64,000 bases of DNA, from IMG/VR virus record IMGVR_UViG_3300049491_000083, positions 12,009 to 76,008 of that record; one strand, 5' to 3'. This DNA is from a virus. The translations under genes were made by a program, and so were the position numbers. Positions 2,547 through 19,925 of the stretch are shown in pieces. Each line of letters starts with the position of its first letter. Within the stretch, counting starts at the first letter, position 1. Under the pieces are notes generated by a model, which worked only from the letters and a program-made list of their open reading frames with translations, was not told where the DNA came from and ran no database searches.

Positions 2547-2569
2547 CACCTACGATCTAAGGACAAATA

Positions 2570-3118: not shown

Positions 3119-3415
3119 AAGGTTTCGACCTTGCGGGAAGGTATCAGCAGTACCACAACACAACAATAAATGCAAACACACAAACCGCATTCGCCCTAGC
3201 AGCATGAGGGCCGTGGGGCCACTCCATAGGAACAGAAAGTGGCATGGAAAGATATCCTTTGCATTAATGTAAAGGGTAAGTTACACCGTCGGGGATATCC
3301 CCCGCAAACGCAACAAACACAAATAGTATGACCGTTGGTTGTGCTTTTTGTGGCTACAAAGACGCTGATATTGGAAGGCAATGGGACCGGGGTTCGATTC
3401 CCCGCATCTCCACAA
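3111..3415 (+). ncRNA. ssrA: tmRNA, tag (A)ANTQTAFALAA
   Basis: 5' GGGGATG-AAAGGTTTCGAC; 3' GGACCGGGGTTCGATTCCCCGCATCTCCA with G3-U pair; resume context ATAAAT-GCA, tag ORF 3172..3207. Confidence 0.96.
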
Positions 3416-3429
3416 CGAAAGGATAGGCA

Positions 3430-4251
3430 ATGTTCACTACATTCACGAGGGATCGCGCAGGCTTTGCTGGTGACTGGCACGGCAATACCGGCTGGGCACT
3501 CCATTGCCTTGACGTATTCAAGTCTCACGATATCTATACAATCTATCAGGTTGGTGACTTCGGGGTATGGGGTGGTAATGATGGTGCCTCGTACCTGCGT
3601 AAGATCAATACCAGATTGAACATGAACAATCAGGATTTGATCGTCGTACCCGGCAATCACGAGAACTACGATATGCTTGACAAGTTCCCGATCAATGAAG
3701 ATGGATTCATGCAGCGCCCTGACCTTGACCGCATTCAGTTTGCTCCCCGTGGGCATGTGTGGCATCACAATAGCGCTCGCTTTGCTGCCATGGGCGGTGC
3801 TTTCAGCATCGACAAGAACATGCGCACAGAGGGACGGTCATGGTGGCCTCAGGAGGCCATTACGCCTGAGGACGTAGAGGCTCTCAAGCGCAATCTTGAC
3901 AAGCGTCTATGGCTCAGCGTGGACGTGTTCCTGAGCCACGATATTCCTGCCGGGGTAGATGTAGGACACAAGGCCTTCGGCCTGCCTGCTGAATTGGAGT
4001 ATGAGGCAAATCGCCAGCGTGTACTGCTTCGCCATGCTGTTGACTATGCGCGTCCGCGAACGCTTGTCCATGGACATTGGCACAAGCGCATTCGTCAGAT
4101 CCTTATAGGCGACTCGCACACAGACGATTCCTATACGACTCAGATCTATGGCCTTGATATGGACGTGACGCAGGATAATATGATCGTGGCAGACGTGGCC
4201 CCGTTCATCGGACTGTACAATGTTCAAGTAATCACAGGAGAGCCAGAATGA
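3430..4251 (+). CDS. calcineurin-like metallophosphoesterase
   Basis: GDWHG, GDFG, GNHE, SHD, HGHWH motifs. Confidence 0.92.
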   Translation: MFTTFTRDRAGFAGDWHGNTGWALHCLDVFKSHDIYTIYQVGDFGVWGGNDGASYLRKINTRLNMNNQDLIVVPGNHENYDMLDKFPINEDGFMQRPDLDRIQFAPRGHVWHHNSARFAAMGGAFSIDKNMRTEGRSWWPQEAITPEDVEALKRNLDKRLWLSVDVFLSHDIPAGVDVGHKAFGLPAELEYEANRQRVLLRHAVDYARPRTLVHGHWHKRIRQILIGDSHTDDSYTTQIYGLDMDVTQDNMIVADVAPFIGLYNVQVITGEPE

Positions 4252-4668
4252 TCAATCAAGGGTGGCAATGCCCGGTATGCAAGAGAGTCTATGCACCATC
4301 GGTAGCAACATGCTGGAACTGTCCTCAGCAGTATCAGTATGGCTATGGGACCAATGAGCCTAAGACCCCTCGCTGGAATGGCAACGTATCGGTTCGCTGT
4401 GCCGTCCTGCACCCACCCGGCTATGTCTGCAACTACGGTCATGAGTAGTGGCATAGTCCTAGGATTCATCTATCTGGCATCGGCTTGGATACTTGTCGAA
4501 TCAATCGTACTCTGGAGAAGGAAATGAACATATCATACGACGACTGGCTGCAAATCGGCATTTTGGCTGGGTGGGCAGAGGAATTCTGCTATACGCACGA
4601 AAAGCGTCCGATGACGGACGACGAGTGGGTAGAGTTCTATGGCTCGGACCCGCATATCCGTGCGCTGG

Positions 4669-4995
4669 CTATTTGGCCGGGGAGTAAGCCGTACCGTATC
4701 CCTTTGCCAGCAATTCCTGATTCAGATTAAGACCATCAACAATGACGGTAGCAAGATACCTGCCGTACTTCTCCTGCTTGTCCATCTGGGTATTCAGGAT
4801 GACAGACTGACCGGGCCAGCACAATGACTGAACAAACGCTGTTGCTGCTTGGCCCTCAGGAGTGAATCGCTCGGGTGTATTAATACCCACAAGCCGAAAT
4901 CGCATCTTCAGGTAGACGTGGAATCCCACGTCAACGATAGCATCAAGAGTGTCCCCGTCAACAATACGGTCGATTGTGGCATTGTAGGTGTACAT
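4669..4995 (-). CDS. staphylococcal-nuclease-like (thermonuclease) protein
   Basis: RIVDGDT, RLVGINTPE, EKYGRYLA, LNQELL motifs; start MYTY 6 nt after TATAAT. Confidence 0.92.
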   Translation of the reverse strand: MYTYNATIDRIVDGDTLDAIVDVGFHVYLKMRFRLVGINTPERFTPEGQAATAFVQSLCWPGQSVILNTQMDKQEKYGRYLATVIVDGLNLNQELLAKGYGTAYSPAK

Positions 4996-5002
4996 AGAAC
5001 TA

Positions 5003-5281
5003 TTATAGCGTATCCGCAACAATAGTGACAAGGCGCTGAGACAGGTCTGTCCTGTCATGCTCCTTGTCGGCAAGGGCCTTGGCAATCAGGGGCCATGCCC
5101 CCATGCGCCGTGGGTGCTTCTTCACTACCCCGGACTTTACCCCGCTGATATCGCTGTATGCATAGGCATAGTTGCCCTTGATGTAGTTGCCTGTTGCGTC
5201 ATTCGCAATCAGCATGGTCTCTATCATGGTTGCCTTGGACTCATCGCCATGGGGCACGAGTTCTACGGTTATCCTGATCAT
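5003..5281 (-). CDS. hypothetical phage protein
   Basis: MIRITVELVP start 6 nt after TACAAT, with TTGACA upstream. Confidence 0.75.
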   Translation of the reverse strand: MIRITVELVPHGDESKATMIETMLIANDATGNYIKGNYAYAYSDISGVKSGVVKKHPRRMGAWPLIAKALADKEHDRTDLSQRLVTIVADTL

Positions 5282-5296
5282 GCTTTTATTGTACCG

Positions 5297-5360
5297 CGAA
5301 TTCGGCCAAATGTCAAAAATTTTTTGCAGACCGAATTTGGGCAAATGTTAAAATTTTGGA
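5297..5360. repeat. two ~30-bp A/T-tract direct repeats (35-bp period)
   Basis: cgaattcggccaaatgtcaaaaattttt / cgaatttgggcaaatgttaaaatttt. Confidence 0.75.
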
Positions 5361-5442
5361 AACTAGGACGATACGTAAAAACAGAAAGCAGCGCCCCGCT
5401 CTTTAGTGCGCACATAAGCACCAAAAAGCGTTGGCATTGCTA

Positions 5443-7040
5443 GGCTTACAGCCCTGCCTCTGTGATGAAGTTCAAGTATGCATATGCAATGCCTATGAGA
5501 ATGAAGCCTACAATTGCTCCCCGCGTTGTCAGCATCATTAGTAGATCCTCACATTCCAGATCGTGCATTCCTGTGCGTTGTTGATAGCAGAGGCGAGGTA
5601 GTGAAGCAACTGCCTATCACTGTTAGCCTCATACTCAATGGTAGTCGTACCCATCACGCTATCCAGATCGAATACTAGCGTACTCATAGTGACTGCTCCA
5701 TCCTTGTGATGATCGTAAGGCCATGCTTCACAGCCTGTCGTGCAGTGGTATCGAAGCCACGCTCAATAGCAACGTCAGCAGCGAAGTCAAGTAGTTCTAC
5801 TATCTGCTCCCACTCATTAGCCCTGAAGGTGATGGTGATAGGGGTAGTGCTCATTAGTGCCTCACACAGAAGGCGTGACCCTTGCGGCACTCAAAGAATG
5901 CACCGTCATCGGTCACGGTATCGAAGTAAAGAGCGGGAGCCACAGGCTCAGGCATAGGGTAGAGGGAAGAGCAAGCGTCAGCAAGCCAATTCCACTGAGA
6001 GCCGCACTCGCATGACACAAGGCCACGCACATAACGGTGCTGGTACATGTTAGACATGAGCATCCATCCAATCCCACACGTCCATGACAATGTGAGTCTT
6101 GCGAGGAAGGTCAGAGACAGTACCCACGTAGGTACCGTCGATCCGATCAGTCTCTTCGATGTGATCCCGGTGGATCTCAACATCGTAGCAGTCGTTGGAG
6201 TAAGGCCCAAAGACAAAGTAGGTGAAGGGCAGCCGACCCTTAGCGGTGTCATGATACACATGGTAGGTGGGGAGAGTCATTCTCTTACCTTCTTTCTATC
6301 TAGTCCTAGACTACACCCTGTACCCGCGAAAAGCAAGCCCAAAACGGACAATGACTGGTCATGCAATGGTCAATGACTGGTCATGCTGGGCGCGGGGTCA
6401 CCAACCCCCATCATCAAAGGATTCGTCACCGAAGAAACCATAGTCCTCATCAGTACCCCACCCAGCAGAGGCGAGCGTATCAGCATCAGCCTCAGCATCA
6501 CTCATTTGATACCCCTCGTACATGGCATCATCGAACTCTGCTTCCATCTCAGCATGATCCTCAGGCTCAAGGTCATCCCACTCGTACTCATCCATTAGAT
6601 CAGCCTCTCAGGCTCAGGTGCATCGGGTGTGTTGTACAGGTCACCTAGGTAGGCATCCCATTGCTCTTGGGTCATGAGGCCCTTGTACTCATGGCATGTG
6701 GGGCACACTACCGTACCATGTGCCCACTGGTTGTCACAGAAGCAACAGACAATGTAGTCGTACTCAGTCTCATCTGCATACCCGGTCATCGCACGTACCA
6801 TGCCTCATCGCTCACGTTGCTACGGGTGATGGGGGCCAGCATATCGAAGCCCCACAGGGCAGTAGTGCTCTCATGGCACACAGGGCAGGGGCCATAGGCC
6901 ACGTTCGTCCACCCATCACCACGGGAATGCGTACCCGCGTAGGGCAGGGGGTTGTGCAGGCCACGGCCCTCATAGGCACACTCTACACAGTCAATGGTGG
7001 CAGGGCTATGCTCTGCCTCGGTCTCTAGAATCTCACTCAT
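5443..7040 (-). other. two leftward operons of small hypothetical genes (e.g. 5684..5854, 6050..6280, 6398..6595, 6595..6789, 6786..7040)
   Basis: tightly coupled short ORFs, several with CxxC or very acidic composition, downstream of promoters near 6310-6340 and 7045-7070. Confidence 0.7.
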
Positions 7041-7655
7041 AGGGCTACTCTAGCACAGGGGGCTGACAGAAGCAACCCTGTAGGGCGGTCAATTCGGTCA
7101 TTGACCGGTCAAAGGTTTGCGGGGCGCGGCAATTTGGTAACCTAGGCTTGCCAAACCTATCTGGGTACTTTGGGCCGTAGCCCTCACCATATGTTGAGTG
7201 GTCGGGGAGAGGTTGGACTTCACTCTCACCCTTCCAAGTTGAGCGGAGGGTAACGCCTAAGCGATAGACCATAGCGATAACGCAGTCATCCCTCCGCAAG
7301 ATTGTGTAGGCTGGGGATCATGGAAAGTCCCGCATTTAATACCCTCCCGGTTCGTTTGGGTAACCTAGGGCTTATGCAGGCATTGGTGGCGAGAACCTCA
7401 TTTAACATCGAACGTGTCACTATTTGTACCTGCTGCCATTGGGGTTTCGTAGACTAGGCTAACCCGGCCTTGCCGGAGCGTTCGTTCCATACTTCTGAGT
7501 TCTTGCTAACCCGGTCTGCACCGGAGCGTACCTCAGTTTTCCCAAGATCTTGGTTGTTCCTCTATGTTCTTATAGTGCTACTCTACAGGAAAATCTGGCA
7601 AAACACAAGCCAAAAACGGTCATTGACCGGTCAGCCAGTGGTCATTGACCAGTCA
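6346..7655 (-). promoter_or_regulatory. GGTCA(A/T)TGAC(C/T)(G/A)GTCA operator repeats upstream of three leftward promoters
   Basis: 6346-6361, 6368-6383, 7087-7111, 7618-7633, 7640-7655. Confidence 0.8.
7131..7573 (-). ncRNA. candidate ~440-nt structured ncRNA
   Basis: own promoter (TTGTGT-N17-TAGAGT at 7608-7580), no credible ORF, many stems, duplicated hairpin module. Confidence 0.65.
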
Positions 7656-7765
7656 TCGCTCGGCGCGGAGCGCCCCGTCCTTCGTTATGAAACCGTTACC
7701 AAATAGGCTTGATTATTCGGTCTGTTTGTGATAGGCTGGCGTTAACGCCAACGAAAGGACACACC

Positions 7766-7873
7766 ATGGCTATCTTCGAATTCTCTGACGGCTTCGACGC
7801 TCAGGGCTGGTACATGGAGCAGATGCGTAAGGGTCACTTTGACGAGGACTTCGACTATGGGGACGAGGGGTAA
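7766..7873 (+). CDS. 35-aa acidic protein in a single-gene cassette
   Basis: GAAAGGA RBS, MAIFEFSDGFDAQGWY...DEG; flanked by GC boxes. Confidence 0.65.
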   Translation: MAIFEFSDGFDAQGWYMEQMRKGHFDEDFDYGDEG

Positions 7874-7901
7874 CCCTCTCCCGCGCCCCTTTCGGGGTAG
7901 T

Positions 7902-8851
7902 CTACGAATCCCATTCCATATTTCGCAGGGCCACGGAAATATCACGCTTAAGAGTTTCAATTGTCCTGAGTGCTTGTCCCAGAAGGATGAGGTCATTGTT
8001 GGTTGCCTGCACGAATGCATTGTCAAGATAGTTGCTGACATAGTTGGCATGATTCATCGCCAACTTGAGTTCATGCGAGTAGTTGAACTCACGCATGGTC
8101 ATCTGCTTGTTTGACTTCATTCTACTTCCCATGTTTGCAGTTGATAGAACCTCTGGTACTGTACCGGTTGAGATTCGATGTAGTATTGGGCATCCATCGC
8201 ATCACTGAAGATATGATCAAGGAACTTGGCACCGTCGCCAAGGTAGAATACGCAGAATACGTCCATCATCGCTTCTTAATCTCGTAGTTGTCGTAGTCCT
8301 TCTCGCCCATTGCTCGCTTGTGACCCTGAACATAGGTGAGTGCACGAGGGTAGTCAGAAAAGAACGAGAGGTATTGGCCCTTGTAGAACACAGTAAACAG
8401 CGGGGGAGGATTCAGGTCATCCTCAGTCAGCATAGGATTAGGCATCGACAACCTCCGAGAAGAGATAGATGACGTATGCACGAGAGGCAATGGAGGGATG
8501 CAGATTCCTACCCGCCTCAAACAGCGACTCAGCCTTGACAAGAATCTGACGAGGCTCGTCATCGTGCGAATACTCAACGGCATAGATGTTCATTCAGACT
8601 TCTCCTTGATAATCTCAGTCCAGTGGACGTAGCAAAGCGGGGTACCCGCCCAATTCTTGAATGCGGGGGTATCACAGTACCCAAACTCACAGATCACGGT
8701 AAAGGTATCCATTAGAACGGAGCCTTCCAGAACTCTTCACCGTCAACGATGACGCAATCCTCACCTACCCGCAGAACCACGGAGTAGTCAAACGCGGCAT
8801 CGTAGTCCGCGAGCATCCAGTAAACGGACGCCCAATGCTCTGACAGTGACA
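7902..8851 (-). other. leftward operon of very small hypothetical genes
   Basis: coupled short ORFs downstream of the TGTCAG-type promoter at ~8880-8901. Confidence 0.55.
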
Positions 8852-9051
8852 TTTCGTACCTTTCTGATCTGGTAGTCTCAGACTAACATGGGGGTCTGAC
8901 ACTCCCTGTCTGGATATTGGGGCAAAACGGACACCAAATATAACAGAATGGTAACGGTTTGCGGGGCGCTCGGTAGAAACGTTATCAAACTGTTACATAA
9001 ATGGTCGCTCAAACGACCATAAATGTCAGACCCCTCTGCTACAGTGTTCCT

Positions 9052-9309
9052 ATGAGTACACAGGTGAGCATTCAGAGTGCGTGTGGCAGGATCACTACGA
9101 GCATCGACCTCTTCGATCTTGAATTGAATCCTCATGGGGTGGTCTGCTGCCCCGAGTGCGAACTCATCATTGAGTCTCGTGATGCGTGGCTGGGTGTCTG
9201 CTATGAATGCGGAACTGATGTTCACCTGTACCCCGACACTCTCTGCCCTGAGTGTGCCTCGCAGTATATGTCCGACTACACGAAAGAGAAGTGGGGAGGT
9301 AGGTGGTAG
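9052..9309 (+). CDS. Cys-rich hypothetical protein (leaderless)
   Basis: ATG 6 nt after TACAGT; CxxC pairs. Confidence 0.65.
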   Translation: MSTQVSIQSACGRITTSIDLFDLELNPHGVVCCPECELIIESRDAWLGVCYECGTDVHLYPDTLCPECASQYMSDYTKEKWGGRW

Positions 9310-9536
9310 TGAGCAGGGTTGAATTCCATCGGGTTGATCATCCCTTCGTAGACGAGATTGGTGTCTATGACGTAGATGGTGATATTGCTGCGTCTGTTAT
9401 TGGATTCCGGGGCAATCGTGCTGTCACTGAGCCGATCCTTGAATTCTCAGACTACGCAAAGGCGTACAGCATCATGACGGCATATGGCAATGTGCCTCTC
9501 TATGTTATTAGTGCGTTCGTCAGGGATCACTCCTGA
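9303..9536 (+). CDS. hypothetical protein
   Basis: overlaps the upstream stop; ends just before a GC box. Confidence 0.6.
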   Translation: MVVSRVEFHRVDHPFVDEIGVYDVDGDIAASVIGFRGNRAVTEPILEFSDYAKAYSIMTAYGNVPLYVISAFVRDHS

Positions 9537-9679
9537 CGTTCCGCGCCCCGTTTTAGATCGTTACGAGATTGTTACAAATCCCCAATGCAACGTGTTACAA
9601 AGTATGTTATCATATTGTTACCTAAAAAGACCCCATTTCGCTTGCATCACTGGCTGATCTATGGTACCTTTAGGTTACT

Positions 9680-9739
9680 GGATCGGAGGAAGCGAGAGCC
9701 AAATCTGATCCCGGTCGGTTTCTTAAAAACTACACAGTG
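9680..9739 (+). promoter_or_regulatory. boxB-like hairpin plus boxA-like antitermination motif in the tRNA-array leader
   Basis: ggatcgga/tctgatcc stem, then TTTCTTAAAAACTACACAGTG resembling rrn boxA. Confidence 0.5.
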
Positions 9740-9749
9740 GAAATAGCAA

Positions 9750-9824
9750 GCACTCTTGGTGTAACGGTAGCACAGCGGATTCCAAACCCGCTAGGTGTGG
9801 GTTCGAATCCTACGGAGTGTGCCA
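9750..9824 (+). tRNA. tRNA-Trp(CCA)
   Basis: anticodon loop TTCCAAA; CCA end. Confidence 0.9.
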
Positions 9825-9825
9825 T

Positions 9826-9898
9826 GGTCCTATAGAGCAGCGGAGTGCTCGTCACCCTGTCACGGTGAAGGTCACGGGTTCGAATCCCGTTAGGATCG
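9826..9898 (+). tRNA. tRNA-Asp(GTC)
   Basis: tcacc-CTGTCAC-ggtga. Confidence 0.93.
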
Positions 9899-9943
9899 CG
9901 TTTGGCTAGGTACCTTATTAAAACAGGAGGCTAGCCACACCAT

Positions 9944-10025
9944 GTATGAGTTGAGCAGGCGGTGTGCTCAGCAGGCTGTAACCCTGTAGCCTTTGGGCAT
10001 GGAGGTTCGATTCCTCTCTCATACA
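9944..10025 (+). tRNA. tRNA-Tyr(GTA)
   Basis: gcagg-CTGTAAC-cctgt; long variable arm. Confidence 0.92.
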
Positions 10026-10029
10026 CTCT

Positions 10030-10101
10030 GGCCCTATCGTCTATTGGTTAGGATGTGACCCTTTCAAGGTTGCGGAGAGAGTTCGATCCTCTCTAGGGCT
10101 A
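10030..10101 (+). tRNA. tRNA-Glu(TTC)
   Basis: tgacc-CTTTCAA-ggttg. Confidence 0.9.
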
Positions 10102-10195
10102 CGGTCGGTGGCAGCACCGAGGCTGGTCAAGGACTCCCCCAATACCAGTCAAAGCGGAACCAGTGACGGGAGATTGCTGGGAATGTGGCTGCTTC

Positions 10196-10269
10196 GCCTC
10201 TGTAGTTTAATGGCAAAACAACTGTTTAGTAATCAGTTGACGAGGGTTCGATTCCTTCTAGAGGCTCCA
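10196..10269 (+). tRNA. tRNA-Thr(AGT)
   Basis: loop TTAGTAA, GCC/GGC acceptor, CCA end. Confidence 0.8.
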
Positions 10270-10270
10270 T

Positions 10271-10342
10271 TCTCCACTCGCCCAACGGCAGGGCAGCAGA
10301 CTGTTAATCTGTACGGTCTTGGTTCGAATCCAAGGTGGAGAG
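10271..10342 (+). tRNA. tRNA-Asn(GTT)
   Basis: gcaga-CTGTTAA-tctgt. Confidence 0.93.
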
Positions 10343-10348
10343 CGTCAA

Positions 10349-10422
10349 TGCGAGGTCATCTAATGGCAAGATGCAAGGCTCTGAACCTTGTCACCGGAGT
10401 TCGACCCTCTGCCTCGCAGCCA
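10349..10422 (+). tRNA. tRNA-Gln(CTG)
   Basis: caagg-CTCTGAA-ccttg; CCA end. Confidence 0.92.
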
Positions 10423-10423
10423 A

Positions 10424-10498
10424 GGGGGTGTAGTAGTAACGGTAACACAACTGTCTTGCACACAGTTATTCGGGGTTCGAATCCCCGCACTTCCACCA
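10424..10498 (+). tRNA. tRNA-Ala(TGC)
   Basis: actgt-CTTGCAC-acagt; G3-U70 pair. Confidence 0.92.
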
Positions 10499-10499
10499 C

Positions 10500-10571
10500 G
10501 GGATTGAAGCATTAATGGTGATGCTCTAGACTCTTAATCTTGAGATGAAGGTTCAAGTCCTTCCAGTCCCA
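10500..10571 (+). tRNA. tRNA-Lys(CTT)
   Basis: anticodon loop CTCTTAA. Confidence 0.88.
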
Positions 10572-10572
10572 C

Positions 10573-10644
10573 TGAGTCATGGTGAAACGGTTATCACAGG
10601 ATTCTGATACAGTCCTATTCCGGGTTCGATTCCCGGTGACTCTA
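10573..10644 (+). tRNA. tRNA-Ile(GAT)
   Basis: ggatt-CTGATAC-agtcc; U1-U72 mismatch. Confidence 0.85.
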
Positions 10645-10645
10645 C

Positions 10646-10716
10646 GCGAATGTTGCATAATGGTAGTGCCTCTGCCTTCCAAGCAGACGGTGCGGGTTCG
10701 ATTCCCGCTATTCGCT
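10646..10716 (+). tRNA. tRNA-Gly(TCC)
   Basis: tctgc-CTTCCAA-gcaga. Confidence 0.93.
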
Positions 10717-10721
10717 CGCCT

Positions 10722-10797
10722 GCCTCTCTAGTTTAATGGCAAAACCGCGTGCTTTTACCACGTCAGACTGGGGGTTCGAATCCCTCGGGGGGCACCA
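10722..10797 (+). tRNA. tRNA-Lys(TTT)
   Basis: gcgtg-CTTTTAC-cacgt; CCA end. Confidence 0.85.
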
Positions 10798-10798
10798 A

Positions 10799-10873
10799 GC
10801 AAGATTAACTCAACGGTAGAGTTCCTGTCTTACACACAGGCGGTTGGGGGTTCGAATCCCTCATCTTGCACCA
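10799..10873 (+). tRNA. tRNA-Val(TAC)
   Basis: cctgt-CTTACAC-acagg; CCA end. Confidence 0.93.
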
Positions 10874-10874
10874 C

Positions 10875-10947
10875 GCCTCTATAGTTCAATGGATAGAGCA
10901 TCTGGCTTCGAACCAGAATGTTGGGAGTTCGAATCTCTCTAGGGGCA
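10875..10947 (+). tRNA. tRNA-Arg(TCG)
   Basis: tctgg-CTTCGAA-ccaga. Confidence 0.93.
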
Positions 10948-10949
10948 CT

Positions 10950-11023
10950 GTGACTATGGTGTAATGGCAACATGATTGGTTGTGTCCCAATCGTTGAGGG
11001 TTCAAATCCCTCTAGTCACCCCA
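10950..11023 (+). tRNA. tRNA-His(GTG)
   Basis: attgg-TTGTGTC-ccaat; C73 plus CCA. Confidence 0.92.
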
Positions 11024-11095
11024 CGCGAGGTAGCATAAAGGTAGTGCGTCGGTCTCATAAACCGAAGAGTGATGGTTCAATTCCATCCCCCGCGA
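11024..11095 (+). tRNA. tRNA-Met(CAT)
   Basis: tcggt-CTCATAA-accga. Confidence 0.9.
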
Positions 11096-11099
11096 CTCA

Positions 11100-11170
11100 G
11101 GGTTATTAGCACAGTGGAAGTGCATCCGGTTGAAGCCCGGAGGACGGTGGTTCGATTCCATCATTTCCCA
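11100..11170 (+). tRNA. tRNA-Phe(GAA)
   Basis: tccgg-TTGAAGC-ccgga; two U-U mismatches in the acceptor stem. Confidence 0.82.
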
Positions 11171-11174
11171 CTCT

Positions 11175-11263
11175 GGAAGGGCTGCCATTGGTGAGGTAAA
11201 CTGTCTTGAAAACAGCCGTGGGTAATTCTGCTTGATTGGGTTCGATTCCCTCCCCTTCCGCCA
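11175..11263 (+). tRNA. tRNA-Ser(TGA)
   Basis: loop CTTGAAA, long variable arm, G73-CCA. Confidence 0.88.
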
Positions 11264-11264
11264 T

Positions 11265-11336
11265 GCCCCTATAGTAGAATGGATAGTGCATCCCTCTCCT
11301 AAAGGGAAGATTCAGGTTCGACTCCTGATAGGGGCA
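11265..11336 (+). tRNA. tRNA-Arg(CCT)
   Basis: tccct-CTCCTAA-aggga. Confidence 0.92.
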
Positions 11337-11426
11337 CTCCGCGCCACGCGATGATCGTTATACGATTGTTACCAAAATCCGCTGTTTCCACTTGTGTTTC
11401 CAATCCATCTATGATAGGCTCATCAC

Positions 11427-11774
11427 ATGAGCAGGACAGATGCACACCGCCCCTTCAAGGCACAGGTCCCCGATGCCCCTCGTGCGTGGCATGATCACTC
11501 CAATGGCGTATGCGACCTTCCCTCGTTGGAAGAGTGGCAGCGTATGAACCGGCGTATGTGGTGGACCCGTACCCGCTGCACTTGGCAGCCTGCCAACTGG
11601 CACACCTACAAGGGCTTCAAGCGTAACAAGGGTGAGGGCCAGTGGATCGCTGATCAGCGGTACAGGAAGTACGCTGATCATCCTGACAACTATGATCTTG
11701 ACATTGAAGAAGAAGAGCCGGAAGAAATCATCGAAGGCTGTATGTGGTGCTGTGGAGGATATGATGTACGTTAG
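11427..11774 (+). CDS. hypothetical protein (leaderless)
   Basis: MSRTDAHRP start 6 nt after TAGGCT. Confidence 0.7.
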   Translation: MSRTDAHRPFKAQVPDAPRAWHDHSNGVCDLPSLEEWQRMNRRMWWTRTRCTWQPANWHTYKGFKRNKGEGQWIADQRYRKYADHPDNYDLDIEEEEPEEIIEGCMWCCGGYDVR

Positions 11775-12103
11775 CGATACCGTTCTGAACGTGGTCTATG
11801 AAGAGACCCTCATTCTGCTCATTGAGCGAATGTCTGTTCATCCTCTGTTTGATCCTGAGTGTGATTGCATGATGCACTACTGCCAGTGTGAACATCAGGG
11901 ATGGATTCAGGCTGTGGCCTACATCGAAGATTGTCTGACGGGAGCCAAATGAGAGACATTGATTCCATACCCCAGAAAGAGTGGGAACTGATTGGTGATG
12001 CCGTGGTCATGGCGATTGACATAGCAGACCAGTTGGGTCTGGCCATTGCAACAGACTTCTCCAATGCACTATTCGAACTAGAGAGCCGAAGGCCATTCCA
12101 AAC

Positions 12104-12562
12104 ATGAACACCGCTTTTATCGTTGATATGGATGGGACGCTCGCTGACGTGCGTACCATTCGTCATCATGTTCGGCAACGTCCGAAGAACTTCGATGCCT
12201 TCCATGCTGAATCAGTCAATGTTCCTCCGCATGATCATGTAGTTGAACAGGTACGTCAGGCCAAGGCTGATGGTCACGATATCATTATCGTTACCGCTCG
12301 CAATGCCAAGTGGCGTAACCATACTGCCATGTGGCTTGCCCTGCACGACATTCCCAATGATGCCCTGTTCATGCGTAAGAACAAGGATCAGCGGGTAGAT
12401 GTTGAGGTCAAGCGTGACATTCTCAATGTAATCCGAGAGTCTTGGACTGTTGTCCATGCCATTGATGACAACCCTTCGATCATCGAACTCTGGGAATCCG
12501 AGGGTATCCCGACTACTCACGTAGAAGGTTGGGAAGTGGGTATTGACAGCAACACCCGCTGA
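12104..12562 (+). CDS. HAD-family phosphatase (polynucleotide kinase 3'-phosphatase-like domain)
   Basis: DMDGT, VTAR, LFMR, K, IDD motifs. Confidence 0.88.
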   Translation: MNTAFIVDMDGTLADVRTIRHHVRQRPKNFDAFHAESVNVPPHDHVVEQVRQAKADGHDIIIVTARNAKWRNHTAMWLALHDIPNDALFMRKNKDQRVDVEVKRDILNVIRESWTVVHAIDDNPSIIELWESEGIPTTHVEGWEVGIDSNTR

Positions 12563-12595
12563 TGCTATACTTGAGACCTACACAAAGGAGAACAT

Positions 12596-12733
12596 ATGGC
12601 AACAGTTGGCCAGTCCTTCACCACTGCACAGTCAGGCGTGACAGGCATTATCAAGGAAGTTCATCCCCGCTCTAATGGCGAGGTTCTGCTTCTGGACGTG
12701 AATGGTTCCGAGCGTTGGACCACTGCACGCTGA
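12596..12733 (+). CDS. 45-aa beta-rich protein
   Basis: TTGACA-N17-TATACT promoter and AAGGAG RBS. Confidence 0.75.
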   Translation: MATVGQSFTTAQSGVTGIIKEVHPRSNGEVLLLDVNGSERWTTAR

Positions 12734-12884
12734 AAACAGTGCTACAATAACAGAATAACTTAGGGAATGTGACCGCGAATACTGGGTTCGCATCGACTCA
12801 CTCCCCAAAGAGGGTGGTACTGAACAGAGCACGGCTCCACCATCCTTCAATAGCCTGAAAAAGACAGCATAGACAGGCACTCTA

Positions 12885-12934
12885 CTTCCCCCTTGGGACT
12901 GGACCTAGATCCTCCCTTGGGGGAGTTTCATTTT
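12885..12934 (+). terminator. probable intrinsic terminator
   Basis: cttcccc/ggggag stem followed by tttcatttt, abutting a GC box. Confidence 0.55.
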
Positions 12935-13026
12935 CCGCGCCCCGCCCTTCGAATCGTTACGAAGCCGTTACCAAATCCCCCGCCTCCGGGCTTGACTTTC
13001 CAGCCAATATAGACTAGGGTGGGTCT

Positions 13027-13167
13027 ATGACCATCCACCGACGCAAGCGGACCCGCGAAGAAATCCAGTATTGGCAGGATATTCGCCGGTCTAATGCGGC
13101 TCAGCCGCACCGTAATAAGTCTAAGTATTCACGCAAGGCTAAGCACAAGGGAAAAGAATATGTATGA
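13027..13167 (+). CDS. 46-aa basic peptide with ArfA-like motif
   Basis: MTIHRRKRTREEIQYWQDIRRSNAAQPHRNKSKYSRKAKHKGKEYV; leaderless start after TAGGGT. Confidence 0.7.
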   Translation: MTIHRRKRTREEIQYWQDIRRSNAAQPHRNKSKYSRKAKHKGKEYV

Positions 13168-13238
13168 GTTTCTATGGTTTATTGGCATGGTAGTATTCGG
13201 TGCCCTCCTAATCGCCTTCGTCCTAGATCGGTAATAAA

Positions 13239-13985
13239 TTGACTACTGCACTTGCTACCCGCTCCCTTATCGCATCCAAGGATCGTAAGGTGGCTTCCGC
13301 TACTAATGCTGCCGGTACTCAGGCTGCCTTTGAGAATACCTTTGGCCTTGCTAATGGCAAGGCTAATTCTTGTGTAGAGGCAACCGACTACTGCGAACTT
13401 ATCTGCTATGCGGGTAAACTGGAAAACCTGTTTACTGCCGTTGGCGTTAATATGCTGCACAATTGGAATCTGCTAAAGGATGCCAACCTCATTGACACGT
13501 TCGATATGCTCAATGAGATTATCTATGTATTCGATACTAAGTCGGATAAGCGTGGGTCAGAGAAGATTTATCGTATCCATTGGGACGGTGACTTTTTCTC
13601 CCCCGAGTATATCGAAGCGTGGGCATGTATCATCATGCTCTACCCTCAGATTCAGTTTTGGGTTTACACCCGTAATGCTGCGGCTGCCGTTGCCCTGCAT
13701 AAGATGACGCTTACTAACCTGTCGCTCTACTTTTCTGGCGACCCGTCGAATAAGCCTATCGCAGAAATGCTGCACCGTACCTACGGTATCCGAATTGCTT
13801 TCGTAGCCGAGACTTTCGCAGACTCGCAGGCAGCACTAAAGGATATCACCGGAAAGCCGGGAGCAAGGTGCCCCGAGCAGACTAAGCAAATTAAACTTAT
13901 CTCTGAGGCAGGGTCGGCATGTTCCGTGTGCGGCCTTTGCGTTTGGAATAAGGCCAACATCGCATTCTCTAGGAGCAAGAAATAA
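13239..13985 (+). CDS. gp88-like (radical-SAM-related Cys-cluster) protein
   Basis: CxxxTxxCxxxCYA, RIHWDGDF, FWVYTR, C-terminal CxxCxxC. Confidence 0.8.
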   Translation: MTTALATRSLIASKDRKVASATNAAGTQAAFENTFGLANGKANSCVEATDYCELICYAGKLENLFTAVGVNMLHNWNLLKDANLIDTFDMLNEIIYVFDTKSDKRGSEKIYRIHWDGDFFSPEYIEAWACIIMLYPQIQFWVYTRNAAAAVALHKMTLTNLSLYFSGDPSNKPIAEMLHRTYGIRIAFVAETFADSQAALKDITGKPGARCPEQTKQIKLISEAGSACSVCGLCVWNKANIAFSRSKK

Positions 13986-14252
13986 TGCCCAAGGTTGAAA
14001 TGCCGCGTGCATCATGGGAAAGTCTATTGGCTATGCTATCCATGCTGGATTCATGGCACGTTGATCCTACTCAGGTTGATATCATGTACCGCGAAATCTC
14101 CGAGCAGGTTTATAGTCAGGAGTATTAGCAGGCCCTTCGGGGTCCGCGCCCAGCAAGACCTTGTTACGAAATCGTTATTAAATCCCCAGTTCTAGGGCTT
14201 GACATGGGCCGGGTATGGGTGTAGAGTAAGCATTACCAACTAAGGAGACAAC

Positions 14253-14576
14253 ATGGCTGATACCGCTGACTACCTCATTCGTCAGATTGACGACTTCATT
14301 GCCGAACTCAAGCGTGACGTAAAGAACTCTGACATTGACGCTTCAATGGCTCAGAACTATGCTGAGTTCTTCAACCGTTCAATTTCTACCCGCGTGACTG
14401 GCACGATCACGGTGACCTTTGAGGTCGCTATGGATCTTGAGCCGGGTACTGACAAGGGCGATCTTGACCCTTCGGACTTCGACGCTTCCATCGAAACCGG
14501 ATGGGCAACTGAGGGTATCTGCATCGACTCTGCCGATGTGACCGACTTCGACTTCGATCTGGAGTATGACGACTGA
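14253..14576 (+). CDS. acidic hypothetical protein
   Basis: AAGGAG RBS; first gene of its cassette. Confidence 0.75.
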   Translation: MADTADYLIRQIDDFIAELKRDVKNSDIDASMAQNYAEFFNRSISTRVTGTITVTFEVAMDLEPGTDKGDLDPSDFDASIETGWATEGICIDSADVTDFDFDLEYDD

Positions 14577-14944
14577 TGAGCACCATGATTGACTATCCCG
14601 ATGAGTGGGATACCGAAGCCCTTACCCGCGATTTCGAAGTGGAGTCATTCTTCTATGATATCTGCTTCGTTAAGCGGAGGGCTGACGGTGTGAAGGGGAG
14701 CCTTACCTTCCACCGGGACCCTGAAAGGAACACCCGTATCTATACCAATTGGAGTGCAGAGTGAAGTCTGTCGTTTATCAGGTAGAGGTTCTTGCCGAGC
14801 AGCCCTTCGAATCCATGGACTTTGAGTTCGTGGCTGAGATTGAGGATGACGACGATCCTACCGACGTTCTCAATCCTGATCTGTATACTCAGATTCTCAA
14901 CAATCTGTCGATCAACTGCGACTTCCTGTATGTGGAGGATGAAG

Positions 14945-15139
14945 ATGCCTAAGTATGACGTGGCGGTACAACTGTCGGGCAACGACGGCAATGCCTATGC
15001 GATCATGGGATCAGTGTCCAAGGCACTCAAGCGAGCGGGGGCACCGAAGGAAGATGTTGATGCCTACCTCGCAGAGTCTATGTCTGGTGACTATGACCAT
15101 CTTCTCCAGACTGCTATCGAATGGGTGGAGGTTCACTAA
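14945..15139 (+). CDS. conserved small phage protein
   Basis: VQLSGNDGNAYAIMG...SGDYDHLL motif. Confidence 0.75.
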   Translation: MPKYDVAVQLSGNDGNAYAIMGSVSKALKRAGAPKEDVDAYLAESMSGDYDHLLQTAIEWVEVH

Positions 15140-15399
15140 TGCCTACCTATGAGAGCACCTACGTTGTACGCATGATCACCGATGCTGATTCGGAAGATGA
15201 GGCATTGGAAATTCAGGCAGAGGCACTTTCCGATATTGCCTATGACTGGGATTTCGCCTAGTCTGGAATGTCCCTTTTGGGGCATCTCCAGCGCCCCGCG
15301 AACCGTTATCAAAACGTTATCTAAATGTCCTATTTGAGTATTGACTCATGACCCGTACTAGTGTAGTCTAGGACTACCAACGAATGAAGGAGATTGAAC

Positions 15400-16410
15400 A
15401 TGGCTCATGCGGTAGAGGTCTTTGAGGATGGGTCGGCTGCCTTCGCATCCCTCCGTGTCCCCGCGTGGCACGCTCTCGGGACGGTATTCACCAAGCCCGT
15501 AACGACTGCTGAGATGCTGAAACTGGCACACCTGAACCACTGGAATGTTCACCTTGAGGAAATGGAACTCCCCTACGATTGCTACCGTGATTATTTCGCG
15601 GTTGTGCGTTCGAATCCTGTTGATCGGGACGAGAATGGTCGCAAGGTCAAGGAGATTCTTGGTCTCGTGGGTGCACGTTACAAGGTTGTCCAGAACGAGG
15701 AACTTTTCCAGTTTGGTGATGACCTGCTTTCCGATGGTCGGTGGGAAACTGCTGGCTCTATCAAGAATGGGACGACCGTTTTCGGTACCCTCGCTCTTGA
15801 CCGTAAGGTCGTTCTTGACCCCACTGGTGTATCGGACACGATCAACACCTACCTTCTGATCCACACTTCCCATGACGGTTCGGTCGCTGTTCAGGCTTCC
15901 GTTACTCCCGTTCGTGTCGTGTGCCAGAACACTCTGAACATGGCCCTTAAGGGTGCAAAGCAGACTTTCAAGGTTCGCCACACGCAGACTGTTGCCGACA
16001 AGGTGCAGGCTGCCAAGGAAGCCCTTGGTCTGGCTAACAAGTTCATCGACAAGTTCGAAGTTGAGTCTAAGACTCTCTTTGAGACCAAGGTGAACGCCAA
16101 GGTGTTCAACGATATCATCACCACTCTCTACCCCAAGCCCGAAGGTAACGCCAAGGGTGCAATGACCAAGTGGGAGAACAAGGTCGATGCTATCAACACC
16201 ATCTACACTGGTGACACTAACGGTATGATCGCTGGTACCGCTTGGGGTGCACTCAACGCCCTTACTGAGCGTCTTGACTGGTACCGTAACGGTCGTGGAG
16301 AGAATGCAGACGTGAACGCGGCTGCTGCGGCTTCCGGCTTCGACGTTGCTACCAACGCTCAGAAGGCTACCATCCTGTCCACTGTCAAGACTCTGGCGGG
16401 AGTCAAGTAG
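15400..16410 (+). CDS. DUF932-family protein
   Basis: PAWHALG, YKVVQNEELF, ETAGS, SHDGS, TPVRVVCQNTL, RHT, TAWGALNALTE motifs. Confidence 0.92.
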   Translation: MAHAVEVFEDGSAAFASLRVPAWHALGTVFTKPVTTAEMLKLAHLNHWNVHLEEMELPYDCYRDYFAVVRSNPVDRDENGRKVKEILGLVGARYKVVQNEELFQFGDDLLSDGRWETAGSIKNGTTVFGTLALDRKVVLDPTGVSDTINTYLLIHTSHDGSVAVQASVTPVRVVCQNTLNMALKGAKQTFKVRHTQTVADKVQAAKEALGLANKFIDKFEVESKTLFETKVNAKVFNDIITTLYPKPEGNAKGAMTKWENKVDAINTIYTGDTNGMIAGTAWGALNALTERLDWYRNGRGENADVNAAAAASGFDVATNAQKATILSTVKTLAGVK

Positions 16411-16414
16411 CAAA

Positions 16415-16459
16415 ATGGCTGGCCCCCACTGCTCACGAGGCGGTGGGGGTCTTGCCATT
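16415..16459 (+). terminator. long hairpin after the DUF932 gene
   Basis: ggcccccactgc/gcggtgggggtc inverted repeat, directly before a GC box. Confidence 0.6.
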
Positions 16460-16528
16460 CCCGCGCCCCGCAAAATTACCCCTTACGAAGGACTTGACAT
16501 TTCACCGGGAATCTGGTAGGCTCCGAGT

Positions 16529-19117
16529 ATGGAGCAGATAATAGAGCATGAGGGCCAAGTCTACCTGCGAGCAGAGGGGCTTATTGACTTACTTATTGAC
16601 AGGGTTGAGGCTCTGGCTATGGAACTTGACGTGTACCGCGACGGCTGGATCGAAGAGGATGTTACTGCATTCTCTAATCAGTTGAAGGGTTTCGCCAAGT
16701 GTATCAAAGTCATAACGATTGAGTATACCTCCTTGACTACCGACGAGAATCGTGCTAAGGTGTACCTAGACCTAGCCGACAAGATGCAAAGGATCATTGA
16801 CGCATGAACAAGTTCCAGTATCATTATGTGATCTGCTATGACGCGGAGACTCAGAAGTGGCATGTAGAGGATGAGACTAAGTACCTAGACGGTAACGTGT
16901 GGGATGACGTGCATGAGGAATGGTTCTGGCCCGTGGATGACACCGAAGAGGACTACCAGAATACCAAGTGCTACAACATGATCCAAGCCCTCGTTCCCAT
17001 TTGGCCGGTGCCCTAATGTGGACTGAATACGACAAGACGATGGTAGACTTCGTTGAGCCTAATGATATTGTCAAGTACCGGGGCAAGATCATCACGGTTA
17101 CCGAGGTAGATGATTCTGACAGTGACCGGGTAGCACTATTCGGGCTGGACTGGATGGACTACTATGTTGAGGTCCGTGTCCCTTGCGGAACCTACGTCCC
17201 GCTGGTATACTGGCAGGACTAACCCACGGGGGACGGCTGGCTGGTGGTCAGATGGTGTCTTATATACATCCTAGAGTAGGGTTCAATCCCCTAGTCCCCT
17301 ACAACAACAATGAAAGGATAGACAATGCCCACTTATACCGTTCATTTCTCGGCCTACTTCTCTGACTCCACTGAGGTAGAGGCAGACACCGAGGAAGAGG
17401 CGTGGAACATTGCAGGCCCCGTTATCTCTGATGACTGGTCGGCCTACTCCGCACAGGGCGGGTACACTGTACCGTTCGATGACATTCAGATTGAGGAAGT
17501 GCAGGAAGATGAATAGCAACCTGCCCGACTACATTAACGCTACGCAGACGTTCACCTATGACGTTGAGGCTGTCCGCGAATACCTGCGGGAGTGTGACAT
17601 TCGCCCCACCGACGATGCTGTTATTCAGACTATCGAAACATGGGCGGCAGAAGAGTTTGGATGGGGAGACTACATCCTCATAGGACCGGATGGAGAAGAA
17701 ATTGCCTAAGTACCTTGTTCGTTATCAGTCCCGCGAGTTCTACGAGATTGCGGTAGAGGCAGATTCGCCCGAGGATGCCGAAGAGAGGTTCTGGCTGGAG
17801 GATAAGATATGGGAGGGTCACCCCTATGACTCAGACACCAGCGTTATTGAAATTGAAGATGAGGATGGGGTTGTAACCTATGAATAGCAACGAATACTAT
17901 GACAACTTTGTTGTCCCCGTTCTGACTGGGCAGATGGACGAGTACCTAGAGGGTATGATCGACACCATTCGCCTTCGCCAGAAGGACAAGGCTCCCAAGA
18001 TTTGGGAGTTCAAGGTTGGCGATGCTGTCAAGTACGGCAACAACGTCAGGCCCAAGTACCTTGCCGGTGTCAAGGGCAAGATCGTGGAGATTCGTCGGAC
18101 CAAGGTTACTGTTGGTCTGGAGAAGCCCGTTGGTCGATTCGGTACCCGGATCGTGACTCCTATTAACCTGATTGAGAAGGTGTAACATGGGTAACCGTGC
18201 AGCATTTGGATTCCGCGACTATGAGGGACGCATCCTCTGGCTCTATGCCCACGAGGGCGGCTATGACATGTTCAAGAAACTTGCAGATGCCATTGCCCAT
18301 GCCGAGCCTAGGTGGGATGGGGAAGAGTGTACCTACGGTACCCGGATGATGATTAGTCATATGATCGGTGAGAAGTGGGATAGCGAGTACGGCTTCGGGA
18401 TCGGCTTTGACCTTCCTGATACCGCCCACTCTGTACCCGTTGTTGACTTTGGCACTAACGAGGTATGGCTGTACCCCTACCCCGGCTACAACCCCAATGC
18501 CTCAGGCAACAAGAATTGGGCACTTTCTGACCTTCCCAAGTACCGCATCGGCTTCGAACTCTTCTGCAAGAAATATGGTTCGTGGACGGTGAGCAACCGG
18601 TTTGCCCATGCCCAGCCCAAGTCTCTTAAGACTGAGACTGAGGAACCCCGGTACACGAAGGCTGAGTGGCTTGAACTACTCCGCACCCTCTAACCCTTGA
18701 CATTGGAGGCCCCACCCGGTAGAATTGCTATAGGAGGTACATCATGACGTGGATCAACTCAGAGTCCATTGCTAATAAGATAACCAAGATTCTGGGGGAC
18801 AATGCTCCTACTCCTTCGGAGTGGAAGTATGCGATCCCTGTTCATCTGGTCCAGTCACCCCTGCCTGTCGTTATCAACGCAAAGAATCTGGCAGACGGTA
18901 TCAACGAAGCCATTGAGAAGTACCATCCTGATTTCAAGGATGAGTGGCTGGCATTCGACGCACGCTCGGAGAAGTATCACATGGAGGATCAGTGATAGTC
19001 TGGATTGAAACAGATGAGTGGTCTGCACGCTGGGGAGATGTGCCTGAGGCTGATGCCGACTGGCTATTCAACCTAGCAGAGATTGCCCTTGGCCCTGCTG
19101 ACACCATAGCAACGTGA
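16529..19117 (+). other. operon(s) of small hypothetical genes (16529..16807, 16804..17016, 17325..17516, 17880..18185, 18187..18693, 18744..18995 and others)
   Basis: translationally coupled short, mostly acidic ORFs. Confidence 0.7.
17228..17301 (+). tRNA. tRNA-Ile(TAT)
   Basis: gggggac/gtcccct acceptor, ggtgt-CTTATAT-acatc, taggg-TTCAATC-cccta. Confidence 0.82.
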
Positions 19118-19170
19118 TCCTGTACCCCGCCCCGTATGAGGGTGCGGGGTCCGGGCGCGGAAGCCAAAAC

Positions 19171-19279
19171 TCATATTACGAAGGATCAAAATTTTCACCG
19201 AGTTTTCGAAAACTGGCATTACGAATGGAGGGAATTTTCACATGAATTCATATTACGAAGGAATGAAAATTTCACCGGG
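19171..19279 (+). repeat. three tandem ATTACGAA...AATTTTCAC repeats
   Basis: units at 19171-19200, 19217-19244, 19248-19279. Confidence 0.8.
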
Positions 19280-19290
19280 ATGGAGTATGC

Positions 19291-19797
19291 ATGACCTGTA
19301 TAGTAGCAGTAACACATGGAGATAAGGTATTCATGGCCGGGGACAGAGGTATGTCTGATGGTAATACCATAGTCAGTAGTAAGGAACCTAAGATATTCGA
19401 TACCGGTGAATATTTATTTGGCTGGGCAGGCAACATAGGCCTAGGCCAATCCATCATTCATGGCTTCGACTTCCCACTGATACAGGATGACGAGGAGATC
19501 TTTACCGTGTTCATCCCACATCTGAAGAAATACATTACGAAGCGCTTTGATATTTCCCCGGATGACCACAGTCACTTCATCCTAGGATACAATGGCCGGG
19601 TATATGAGATTAGCACTGATGGTTATGGCTGTATAGAGTATGACAACATAGCAATAGGCTCGGGTAAGGAATTTGCCATGGGTTCCCTATACAGCACAGT
19701 AGAGGAAGCACCATTGGTACGTGTCACCCTTGCTGTAGAGGCTGCCATTACCCTGAGTCCCGGCTGCGCCGGTCCTATTGACTGGGCAGAGATGTAA
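19291..19797 (+). CDS. HslV/proteasome-beta-like Ntn peptidase
   Basis: N-terminal MTCIVAV, D, K and AIGSG motifs. Confidence 0.82.
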   Translation: MTCIVAVTHGDKVFMAGDRGMSDGNTIVSSKEPKIFDTGEYLFGWAGNIGLGQSIIHGFDFPLIQDDEEIFTVFIPHLKKYITKRFDISPDDHSHFILGYNGRVYEISTDGYGCIEYDNIAIGSGKEFAMGSLYSTVEEAPLVRVTLAVEAAITLSPGCAGPIDWAEM

Positions 19798-19925
19798 AAA
19801 TCAAACTTTTCAAGCATTTTACCCCCACTTTTGGGGGTTTTTTGCTGTTTGGGGGCATGTTTCTGCAAATAATTTGGGATGGGGGCGACATTACGAAAGA
19901 TTAATAGTCTCGACAATCACCCAAA

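Follow-up and report, generated by a model that had tools for sequence, protein, structure and literature searches.

The stretch of viral DNA considered here (the window, 64,000 nucleotides) comprises bases 12009-76008 of a 76-kb linear viral contig from the IMG/VR database (record IMGVR_UViG_3300049491_000083), which is estimated to be 64% complete; all positions given are those of the window. The contig has 24 tRNA genes and a tmRNA and comes from an uncultured phage, a relative of the Streptomyces phages of cluster BE (Stanwilliamsviridae). Its early gene region is an array of ~14 small transcription units, and the boundaries of these units carry copies of a 10-base word made up of G and C only, which we refer to as the box or GC box. 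The units encode mainly small proteins without a family. About 33 of the ~40 proteins scanned have no Pfam family, and the cargo that could be assigned consists of DUF932, GP88-family and zinc-ribbon proteins, a PNKP-type phosphatase, an HslV-like peptidase and a DUF7230 peptide.

The word, CCGCGCCCCG, is present in four exact copies, against 0.04 expected from shuffled sequences. When one mismatch is allowed there are 12 copies (2.4 expected), a number that no shuffle reached. Reading the sequence added three copies with two mismatches, at 7659-7668 and 8962-8971 on the minus strand and 7668-7677 on the plus strand. All 15 copies are intergenic, as judged by a codon-usage gene call, and all lie within 5389-19160 (13.8 kb); the remaining 62 kb of the contig, including the 12 kb upstream of the window, contain no box with one mismatch or fewer. 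The original prediction had counted about 14 intergenic copies and none in the rest of the window, and this confinement extends to the whole contig. Together, the shuffles and the restriction to a single region rule out an origin by chance or base composition. Thirteen of the 17 intergenic gaps of at least 28 bp in the array have a box, and the four without one are short gaps within units. The information content is high across 10-12 bp only and falls to about 0 bits in the flanks, in the window as well as in the cultured phage Karimac and in four relatives that share the word; the box is a discrete word and no part of a longer repeat. The copies and the units that they adjoin are as follows (ORF, open reading frame).

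5389-5398, plus strand: GC box CAGCGCCCCG, one mismatch; inverted relative to the downstream minus-strand unit (promoter 5288-5316, genes 5257-4669).
6386-6395, minus strand: GC box CCGCGCCCAG; two GGTCA-type palindromic operators, promoter 6308-6336 (minus), five small genes 6280-5446.
7120-7129, minus strand: exact GC box; GGTCA-type operators, promoter 7047-7075 (minus), three small genes 7040-6398.
7659-7668, minus strand: degenerate GC box CCGCGCCGAG, two mismatches; GGTCA-type operators, promoter 7580-7608 (minus), ORF-free unit ~7130-7580.
7668-7677, plus strand: degenerate GC box GAGCGCCCCG, two mismatches; abuts the 7659 box; CGTTAT/CGTTAC pair, promoter 7709-7737, 35-aa gene 7766-7873.
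7881-7890, plus strand: GC box CCGCGCCCCT; promoter-less, at a convergent junction between the stops at 7873 and 7902; its CCCC pairs with a downstream GGGG.
8962-8971, minus strand: degenerate GC box GAGCGCCCCG, two mismatches; divergent junction with CGTTAC/TGTTAY pairs on both sides.
8852-7902 (minus) and ~9052-9536 (plus): the two units served by box 8962, both with TGTCAGACC-type promoters.
9541-9550, plus strand: exact GC box, 3 nt past a hairpin; five GTTAC repeats, promoter 9642-9670, 18 tRNA genes 9750-11337.
11339-11348, plus strand: GC box CCGCGCCACG, 1 nt past tRNA-Arg; operator pair, promoter 11392-11420, genes 11427-12733 including the PNKP-type phosphatase.
12935-12944, plus strand: exact GC box, directly after a terminator hairpin with a T tract; operator pair, AAATCCCC, promoter 12992-13020.
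13027-14128: cargo of box 12935, namely the DUF7230 peptide and the GP88-family protein.
14144-14153, plus strand: GC box CCGCGCCCAG, abutting a hairpin; operator pair, promoter 14199-14227, five small genes 14253-15261.
15289-15298, plus strand: GC box CAGCGCCCCG, past a hairpin; CGTTAT pair, promoter 15341-15369, a single DUF932 gene 15400-16410.
16461-16470, plus strand: exact GC box, past a hairpin of -32 kcal/mol; TTACGAAGG site, promoter 16494-16522, cargo 16529-19117 including tRNA-Ile.
19125-19134, plus strand: CCCCGCCCCG, one mismatch; itself the 5' arm of the hairpin terminator that follows the long unit's last gene, and probably no independent box.
19151-19160, minus strand: GC box CCGCGCCCGG, inverted relative to the downstream plus-strand unit; three ATTACGAAGGA..AAAATTTCACCG repeats, HslV-like gene 19333-19797.

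The junctions share a common arrangement, in which a stop codon or terminator hairpin is followed by the box, one or more operators and a TTGxxx-17-TAGxxT promoter. Ten boxes have TTGxxx-N17-TAxxxT downstream on the same strand at a distance of 23-91 bp, always with a spacer of 17 nt. The -10 element takes the form TA(G/C)xxT, and from the sequence we predict that these promoters are of the actinobacterial housekeeping form; a standard promoter scan of the E. coli type is uninformative here, the -10 being TAGxxT. An eleventh box (8962) stands ahead of a promoter of the TGTCAGACC/TAGTCT type. Three types of operators are found between the box and the -35 element: a (C/T)GTTAC pair with 11-bp spacing followed by AAATCCCC, two GGTCAnTGACC palindromes, and a site of the TTACGAAGG type. 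At tandem junctions a hairpin (-8 to -32 kcal/mol) or the 3' end of a tRNA lies 0-11 nt upstream of the box, and such hairpins are missing at the divergent junctions and at 6386. Of the 12 boxes to which a single downstream promoter can be assigned, 10 have the orientation of that promoter. Neither box nor operators accompany nine strong intergenic promoters found elsewhere on the contig, so that the box marks one promoter class and not promoters or terminators in general.

This arrangement is the one that the original prediction had described, and the unusual placements and cargo that it named are also borne out. They include the promoter-less box at the convergent junction (7881), the back-to-back pair at 7659/7668, the one-gene unit at 7766-7873 and the array of tRNA genes flanked by boxes 9541 and 11339. 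The unit proposed to be a non-coding RNA is likewise present on the minus strand at ~7130-7580; it consists of a box, two GGTCA-type operators, a promoter and ~440 nt without a plausible ORF, and is a candidate for a structured RNA. The two copies at the array edges, 5389 (plus) and 19151 (minus), had been singled out as facing inward. They do run against local transcription, but they do not appear to be special, as both lie in ordinary tandem junctions with repeats and a promoter on the other strand. Flipped boxes are common in the BE1 group of cluster BE, where 4-7 of the 18-21 boxes per genome are flipped, sometimes at the identical junction in two close relatives.

Several other repeats lie near the two edges. 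Next to the first, at 5290-5360, two ~30-bp direct repeats (AAAATTTTnACATTTGsCCnAATTCGG) overlap the -35 element of the minus-strand promoter 5288-5316, and an ATG at 5281-5283, ~5 nt past the -10 element, is out of frame with the called gene, which has a GTG start at 5257. Next to the second, at 19170-19290, three direct repeats of ATTACGAAGGA-N2-3-AAAATTT(T)CACCG stand upstream of the HslV-like gene. A related sequence, TTACGAAGGAcTTGACATTTCACCGGGA, at 16475-16505 overlaps the promoter after box 16461, and together with the ATTACGAAGGA repeats it looks like a third operator class.

The array has counterparts in cultured phages. The terminal repeat is ~10.8 kb long in cluster BE (PMC5764925). 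The terminal-repeat region of the BE1 phage Karimac has 26 small genes. The gaps between most of these genes are ~80-240 bp long, and nearly every gap contains a GC hairpin, GCCGCCCCGG, tcAAAAGATCTT and TTGxxx-TAGACT. Within the first 30 kb of Karimac all 21 boxes (GCCGCCCCGG) fall at 743-12657. The BE1 word, CCGCCCCGG, can be written as CCG-CCC-CGG; its arms are palindromic, and the central triplet is CCC in 13-14 copies and GGG in 4-7 copies per genome. The BE2 phage Tomas (L177) has the near-palindrome GACCGGCCCGGTC at 14 of 18 sites, and the central triplet in BE2 is GCC or GGC. The reverse complement of bases 1-12500 of Tomas contains 14 copies of CCGGCCCGG and three copies of the BE1 word CCGCCCCGG, the latter nearest the DUF945 end, which suggests either that cassettes were imported from BE1-type phages or that homogenisation is incomplete. 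A literature search found no paper describing the boxes of the BE phages.

Like the window, these early regions in the BE terminal repeats have a DUF932/DUF945 gene (~70% nucleotide identity), tRNA arrays and a tmRNA, and small genes each with a hairpin-box-operator-promoter junction, with boxes confined to that region. They differ in the word used (CCGCCCCGG or GACCGGCCCGGTC). In addition, the units of the BE array all run in one direction and have almost one gene each, whereas the array in the window, which is known as a contig fragment, has both orientations and multi-gene units. The array probably corresponds to the terminal-repeat, host-takeover region of the BE phages; the host-takeover modules in the terminal repeats of SPO1 and T5 can be likened to it by analogy only.

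The ~70% nucleotide identity across the DUF932/DUF945 gene is the sole similarity of the contig to cultured phages, and a megablast search of the array against GenBank phages gave no match. A WhiB-like gene (PF02467, E = 8e-12) at 34511-34720 on the minus strand supports an actinobacterial host. The public runs that contain the window are freshwater and freshwater-sediment metagenomes. The host is probably an actinobacterium, not necessarily Streptomyces.

Relatives among uncultured viruses were collected with the DUF932 protein as query, which retrieved 80 IMG/VR loci of 57-65% identity (numbered with the prefix L). A scan of IMG/VR and of JGI metagenomes found no DUF932 above 66% amino-acid identity and no close relative for a base-level comparison with the window. 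Public data for the stretch itself come from four DNA runs, available as assembled low-depth contigs only; no RNA run is listed as containing it. Apparent joints in the tRNA array of these contigs proved to be cross-matches of other tRNA genes, and a ~92%-identical relative, present as one low-depth contig, has a 34-nt skip that begins inside box 9541 and is too weak to use. A collection-wide scan for the box together with CGTTAC returned mostly chance single matches in high-GC contigs.

Five loci (L010, L016, L018, L023 and L061) have 6-10 copies of the same word around DUF932 at a G+C content of just 41-50%; there it often takes the form GGGGCCGCGCCCC and again stands beside operators and promoters. 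In other lineages the junction upstream of DUF932 has a different GC-only word, such as GGGGCGCCCC, CCGGCCCC, GGCCCGGGCC or CGGGCCGCCCCG, and in about a third of the relatives it has none. In a quick DUF932 tree the word differs even between near-identical proteins, the carriers of CCGCGCCCC do not form one clade and the window is on a long branch. This pattern would imply either that the word turns over fast or that it is the DUF932 cassette that moves. Relatives keep the box at matching junctions while hairpins, operators and flanks diverge or are replaced.

In one relative, L050, GGCCCGGGC occurs 24 times, mostly a few bases past a TAG stop and just before extended -10 promoters. Bases 1168-5200 of L050 contain ~15 mini-cassettes of ~200 bp (TAG stop, GGCCCGGGC, TGTCAGACC promoter, short gene); among them are paralogous genes in tandem, and the set seems to have grown by unequal exchange at junctions. 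The TGTCAGACC motif also occurs in the window (8890-8900 and 9022-9032) and in L010 and L023, as well as in L050, between the -35 position and an extended -10 element (TGnTAnnnT), and together these elements make up a second class of promoters, conserved throughout the family. DnaA-box-like sequences, TGTGGATAAC and TTGTGGACA, stand beside the GC box or replace it at L023:4790-4845, L061:95-140 and L010:5420-5450, and similar ones are found upstream of DUF932 in L022, L027, L035 and L037.

The original prediction held that the box is a boundary element for the modular exchange of self-contained cassettes. Breakpoints were compared among six BE1 terminal repeats, and four events were found, namely pure cassette indels of 370-379 bp (gene 2), 282 bp and 910 bp, and a 242-bp alternative cargo. 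In these four both breakpoints lie within 13 bp of box centres, with an alignment overlap of 11-20 bp; therefore, one phage has two boxes where the other has one. The same cassette is missing from IchabodCrane and StarPlatinum through two independent deletions whose crossover points differ: one falls in the 3' arm of the hairpin, the other inside the box. The junctions in Yaboi and Wofford are exact chimeras joined inside taGCCGCCCCGG. At one matching BE1 junction a block of box, operator and -35 element has been swapped between phages while the hairpin and the -10 element did not move.

Loci with the same word as the window show the same kind of change. For example, where one box is present in L061, L023 has inverted boxes with a 1.05-kb unit between them. 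Between the window and L016 the shared units F39-F38, F20, F21 and F19-F18 (F numbers are the gene-family labels of this analysis) are reordered and inverted, each of them bounded by boxes in the window. Box 7881 matches the box that precedes F39-F38 in L016; in the window F39-F38 is elsewhere, inverted, behind box 7120. L016 and L018, which are 99.9% identical, have only two differences. One is an indel of 76 bp, of which one end falls within a box; it removes the box, operator and promoter after a tRNA. The other, unrelated to boxes, is the insertion of an HNH endonuclease gene (L016:2849-3300) with replacement of the end of the upstream gene.

Thus, the exchange part of the proposal is supported: deletions, insertions, replacements and inversions of units have their breakpoints at boxes or a few bases from them. 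The part that called for a dedicated recombination or nicking system is not supported. No integrase, as had been noted for the window, and no resolvase, RecT or ERF was found on the 76-kb contig (64% complete), and the tyrosine-recombinase integrase family PF00589 had no match there while the controls matched. These absences, the variable crossovers and the shortness of the element argue for an array that evolves by short-homology recombination between repeated regulatory junctions rather than by site-specific recombination.

The explanation that we consider probable, with moderate confidence, is that the array is a set of early cassettes resembling those of T4-type phages (compared below), with the box as a protein site at unit boundaries and with shuffling by short homology. 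The control region of each unit opens with the same 10-bp GC-only word, followed by an operator and a predicted housekeeping-sigma promoter. The box would be a sequence-specific site for a putative protein, probably phage-encoded, that marks or insulates unit boundaries and may act as a stoperator-like roadblock or as a common switch that shuts off the early genes. As the box is the longest sequence common to all junctions, rare short-homology crossovers would fall in or beside it, and the survival of those recombinants that keep whole units would lead to modular shuffling without a dedicated recombinase. A site for a phage protein, the other role offered in the original prediction, appears to be the most likely primary role of the box, because its conservation has sharp edges, its central triplet is constrained (CCC/GGG in BE1), its orientation is biased with transcription and the word is retained at matching junctions despite replacement of hairpins and operators.

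Several observations weigh against this explanation. No binding protein was identified; a presence/absence screen of gene families over 61 loci, 29 with a GC word and 32 without, gave an artefact only. Its one strong association was an antisense ORF inside DUF932, a GC-content effect, and the rest follows phylogeny. ParB-like and Lsr2-like proteins, encoded in the BE terminal repeats, were considered as readers, and neither is on this contig. The layout can exist without the element, since an entire clade of relatives lacks a GC word. The word type changes between phages with nearly identical DUF932 proteins, and protein-DNA co-evolution would account for this turnover less readily than cassette transfer or the concerted evolution of a recombination handle. 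The distance of 23-91 bp between the box and the -35 element is unlike classical activator or repressor geometry. As for the exchange, relatives also have many gene indels that fall within operons and far from boxes. The coincidence of breakpoints and boxes is partly forced, since every unit boundary in the window has a box, and base-level precision of breakpoints was obtained only in relatives that have a different word or are distant.

A serious rival to the protein site, although we think it rather unlikely, is that nothing reads the box and that it is a structural GC clamp or annealing handle, for which any GC-only run of 9-14 bp would suffice. Such a run might be a melting barrier between the terminator palindrome and the promoter, or a stable microhomology for strand annealing, and the copies within a genome would be identical solely through homogenising recombination from box to box. 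What keeps it a serious rival is the fast turnover of the word, also between phages with near-identical DUF932, and the existence of the word-less clade. The word varies by lineage and yet is always GC-only and in the same place, its orientation flips at one junction between close relatives, Tomas has two word types in one array and crossovers do fall in the box. However, conversion tracts should blur the edges of the word, which are sharp at 10-12 bp; the central triplet is not free among GC letters, being GCC/GGC in BE2; orientation follows the promoter in the 10 of 12 assignable boxes; and the word-less clade functions with the same layout.

The protein-site reading can be carried further, to lineage-private GC-only address words, each read by a dedicated phage protein that insulates the early units and targets exchange, which would amount to integrase-free, integron-like swapping between co-infecting phages that share a word. 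We regard this extension as doubtful.

Another possibility is that the box belongs to the upstream terminator, as a GC-rich element past the hairpin; by slowing RNA polymerase it would make termination more efficient in a host that often has terminators without U tracts. The box does lie 0-11 nt past a hairpin or stop codon at the tandem junctions, in Karimac as well, and it is present at the promoter-less convergent junction 7881. However, there is nothing to terminate at the divergent promoter junctions (7659/7668 and 8962), box 6386 follows a stop codon without a free hairpin, a good terminator just outside the array (19821-19838) has no box, and in L050 the box directly precedes promoters with no hairpin at all. 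A terminator role for the box is unlikely, and we give this account very little weight.

The least probable account is a dedicated site-specific recombination or nicking site, integron-like or T5-nick-like, that actively mobilises the cassettes: the cassettes are bounded by direct or inverted boxes, pure indels leave exactly one box and phages with long terminal repeats of the T5 type carry site-specific nicks, but the contig, as far as it is complete, has no tyrosine or serine recombinase, one BE1 cassette was deleted twice with different crossover points, the box has no attC-like extended structure, boxes occur on both strands following transcription, unlike single-strand nick sets, and the cassettes have promoters of their own.

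Two other observations concern the region around the array. The tmRNA (3111-3413), the tRNA set (9750-11337), the PNKP-type phosphatase (12104-12562) and the basic DUF7230 peptide (13027-13167) are clustered and may form a translation-rescue or RNA-repair kit. In addition, the palindrome GACGTC has no copy in the 21 kb from 3001 to 24000, where ~5 would be expected from composition, and among the loci compared it shows no enrichment apart from a weak one in L025.

Junctions of this grammar occur in dozens of cluster BE Streptomyces phages that have been cultured and grow easily, and these phages make it possible to test the reader of the word, the insulation or shut-off of early genes and the reshuffling of host-takeover gene sets. 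If the box is a protein site, the word would identify a global regulator of the early programme in widespread soil and freshwater actinophages; if it is a recombination handle only, it would be a clean example of a sequence selected for evolvability. In uncultured relatives the box also offers an easy way to mark out early transcription units and mobile gene modules.

The array can be compared with four known systems. Stoperators, which in the cluster A mycobacteriophages L5 and Bxb1 are spread over the genomes of temperate phages and bound by the immunity repressor, resemble the box in being short, asymmetric, multi-copy intergenic sites that are mostly oriented with transcription (in BE1, 14 boxes read CCC and 5 GGG), and the roadblock proposed for the box is likewise a protein. 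The box differs in being GC-only and confined to the early array, and no phage repressor or integrase was recognised on the contig. Integron cassettes share with the array small units that are separated by a recurring boundary element and are gained and lost. However, integrons have a tyrosine-recombinase integrase next to the array and promoter-less cassettes that are transcribed from one common promoter, and their attC sites are imperfect inverted repeats of ~55-140 bp that fold into a recombination site, whereas here conservation extends over 10-12 bp without attC structure, no integrase was found on the contig, each unit has its own promoter and the crossovers vary. Nicks of the T5 type are physical interruptions of a single strand, all on one strand, and the boxes are on both strands following gene direction.

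The closest likeness is to the promoter-early stem-loop (PeSL) cassettes of T4-type phages, in which a terminator and host-type early promoter motifs lie between small ORFan genes, homologous recombination between the motifs without a dedicated recombinase is the proposed mechanism and exchange between neighbouring motifs forms mini-circles (Arbiol et al. 2010, PMC2839356; Comeau et al. 2014, PMC4122927). Both systems have a sigma-70-type early promoter in the repeated motif (here predicted from sequence alone at ten boxes with the 17-nt spacer) and a terminator stem-loop in the same intergenic motif (here the hairpins of the tandem junctions). Both are plastic regions of small genes of unknown function, and in both the ends of indels or replacements between relatives fall in the motifs, as in the four BE1 events and in L023 versus L061. 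The feature in the window is strongly non-random, and to the known PeSL-like cassettes it adds a lineage-specific GC boundary word of which we found no description. The array works like PeSLs but is not classed as a member, because its nearest cultured relatives are Stanwilliamsviridae siphoviruses of Streptomyces and not T4-type myoviruses. It alone has a separate 10-bp GC-only word between hairpin and promoter, lineage-specific and the most conserved part of the junction, which also occurs without a promoter or without a terminator, and it alone has operators between this box and the promoter.

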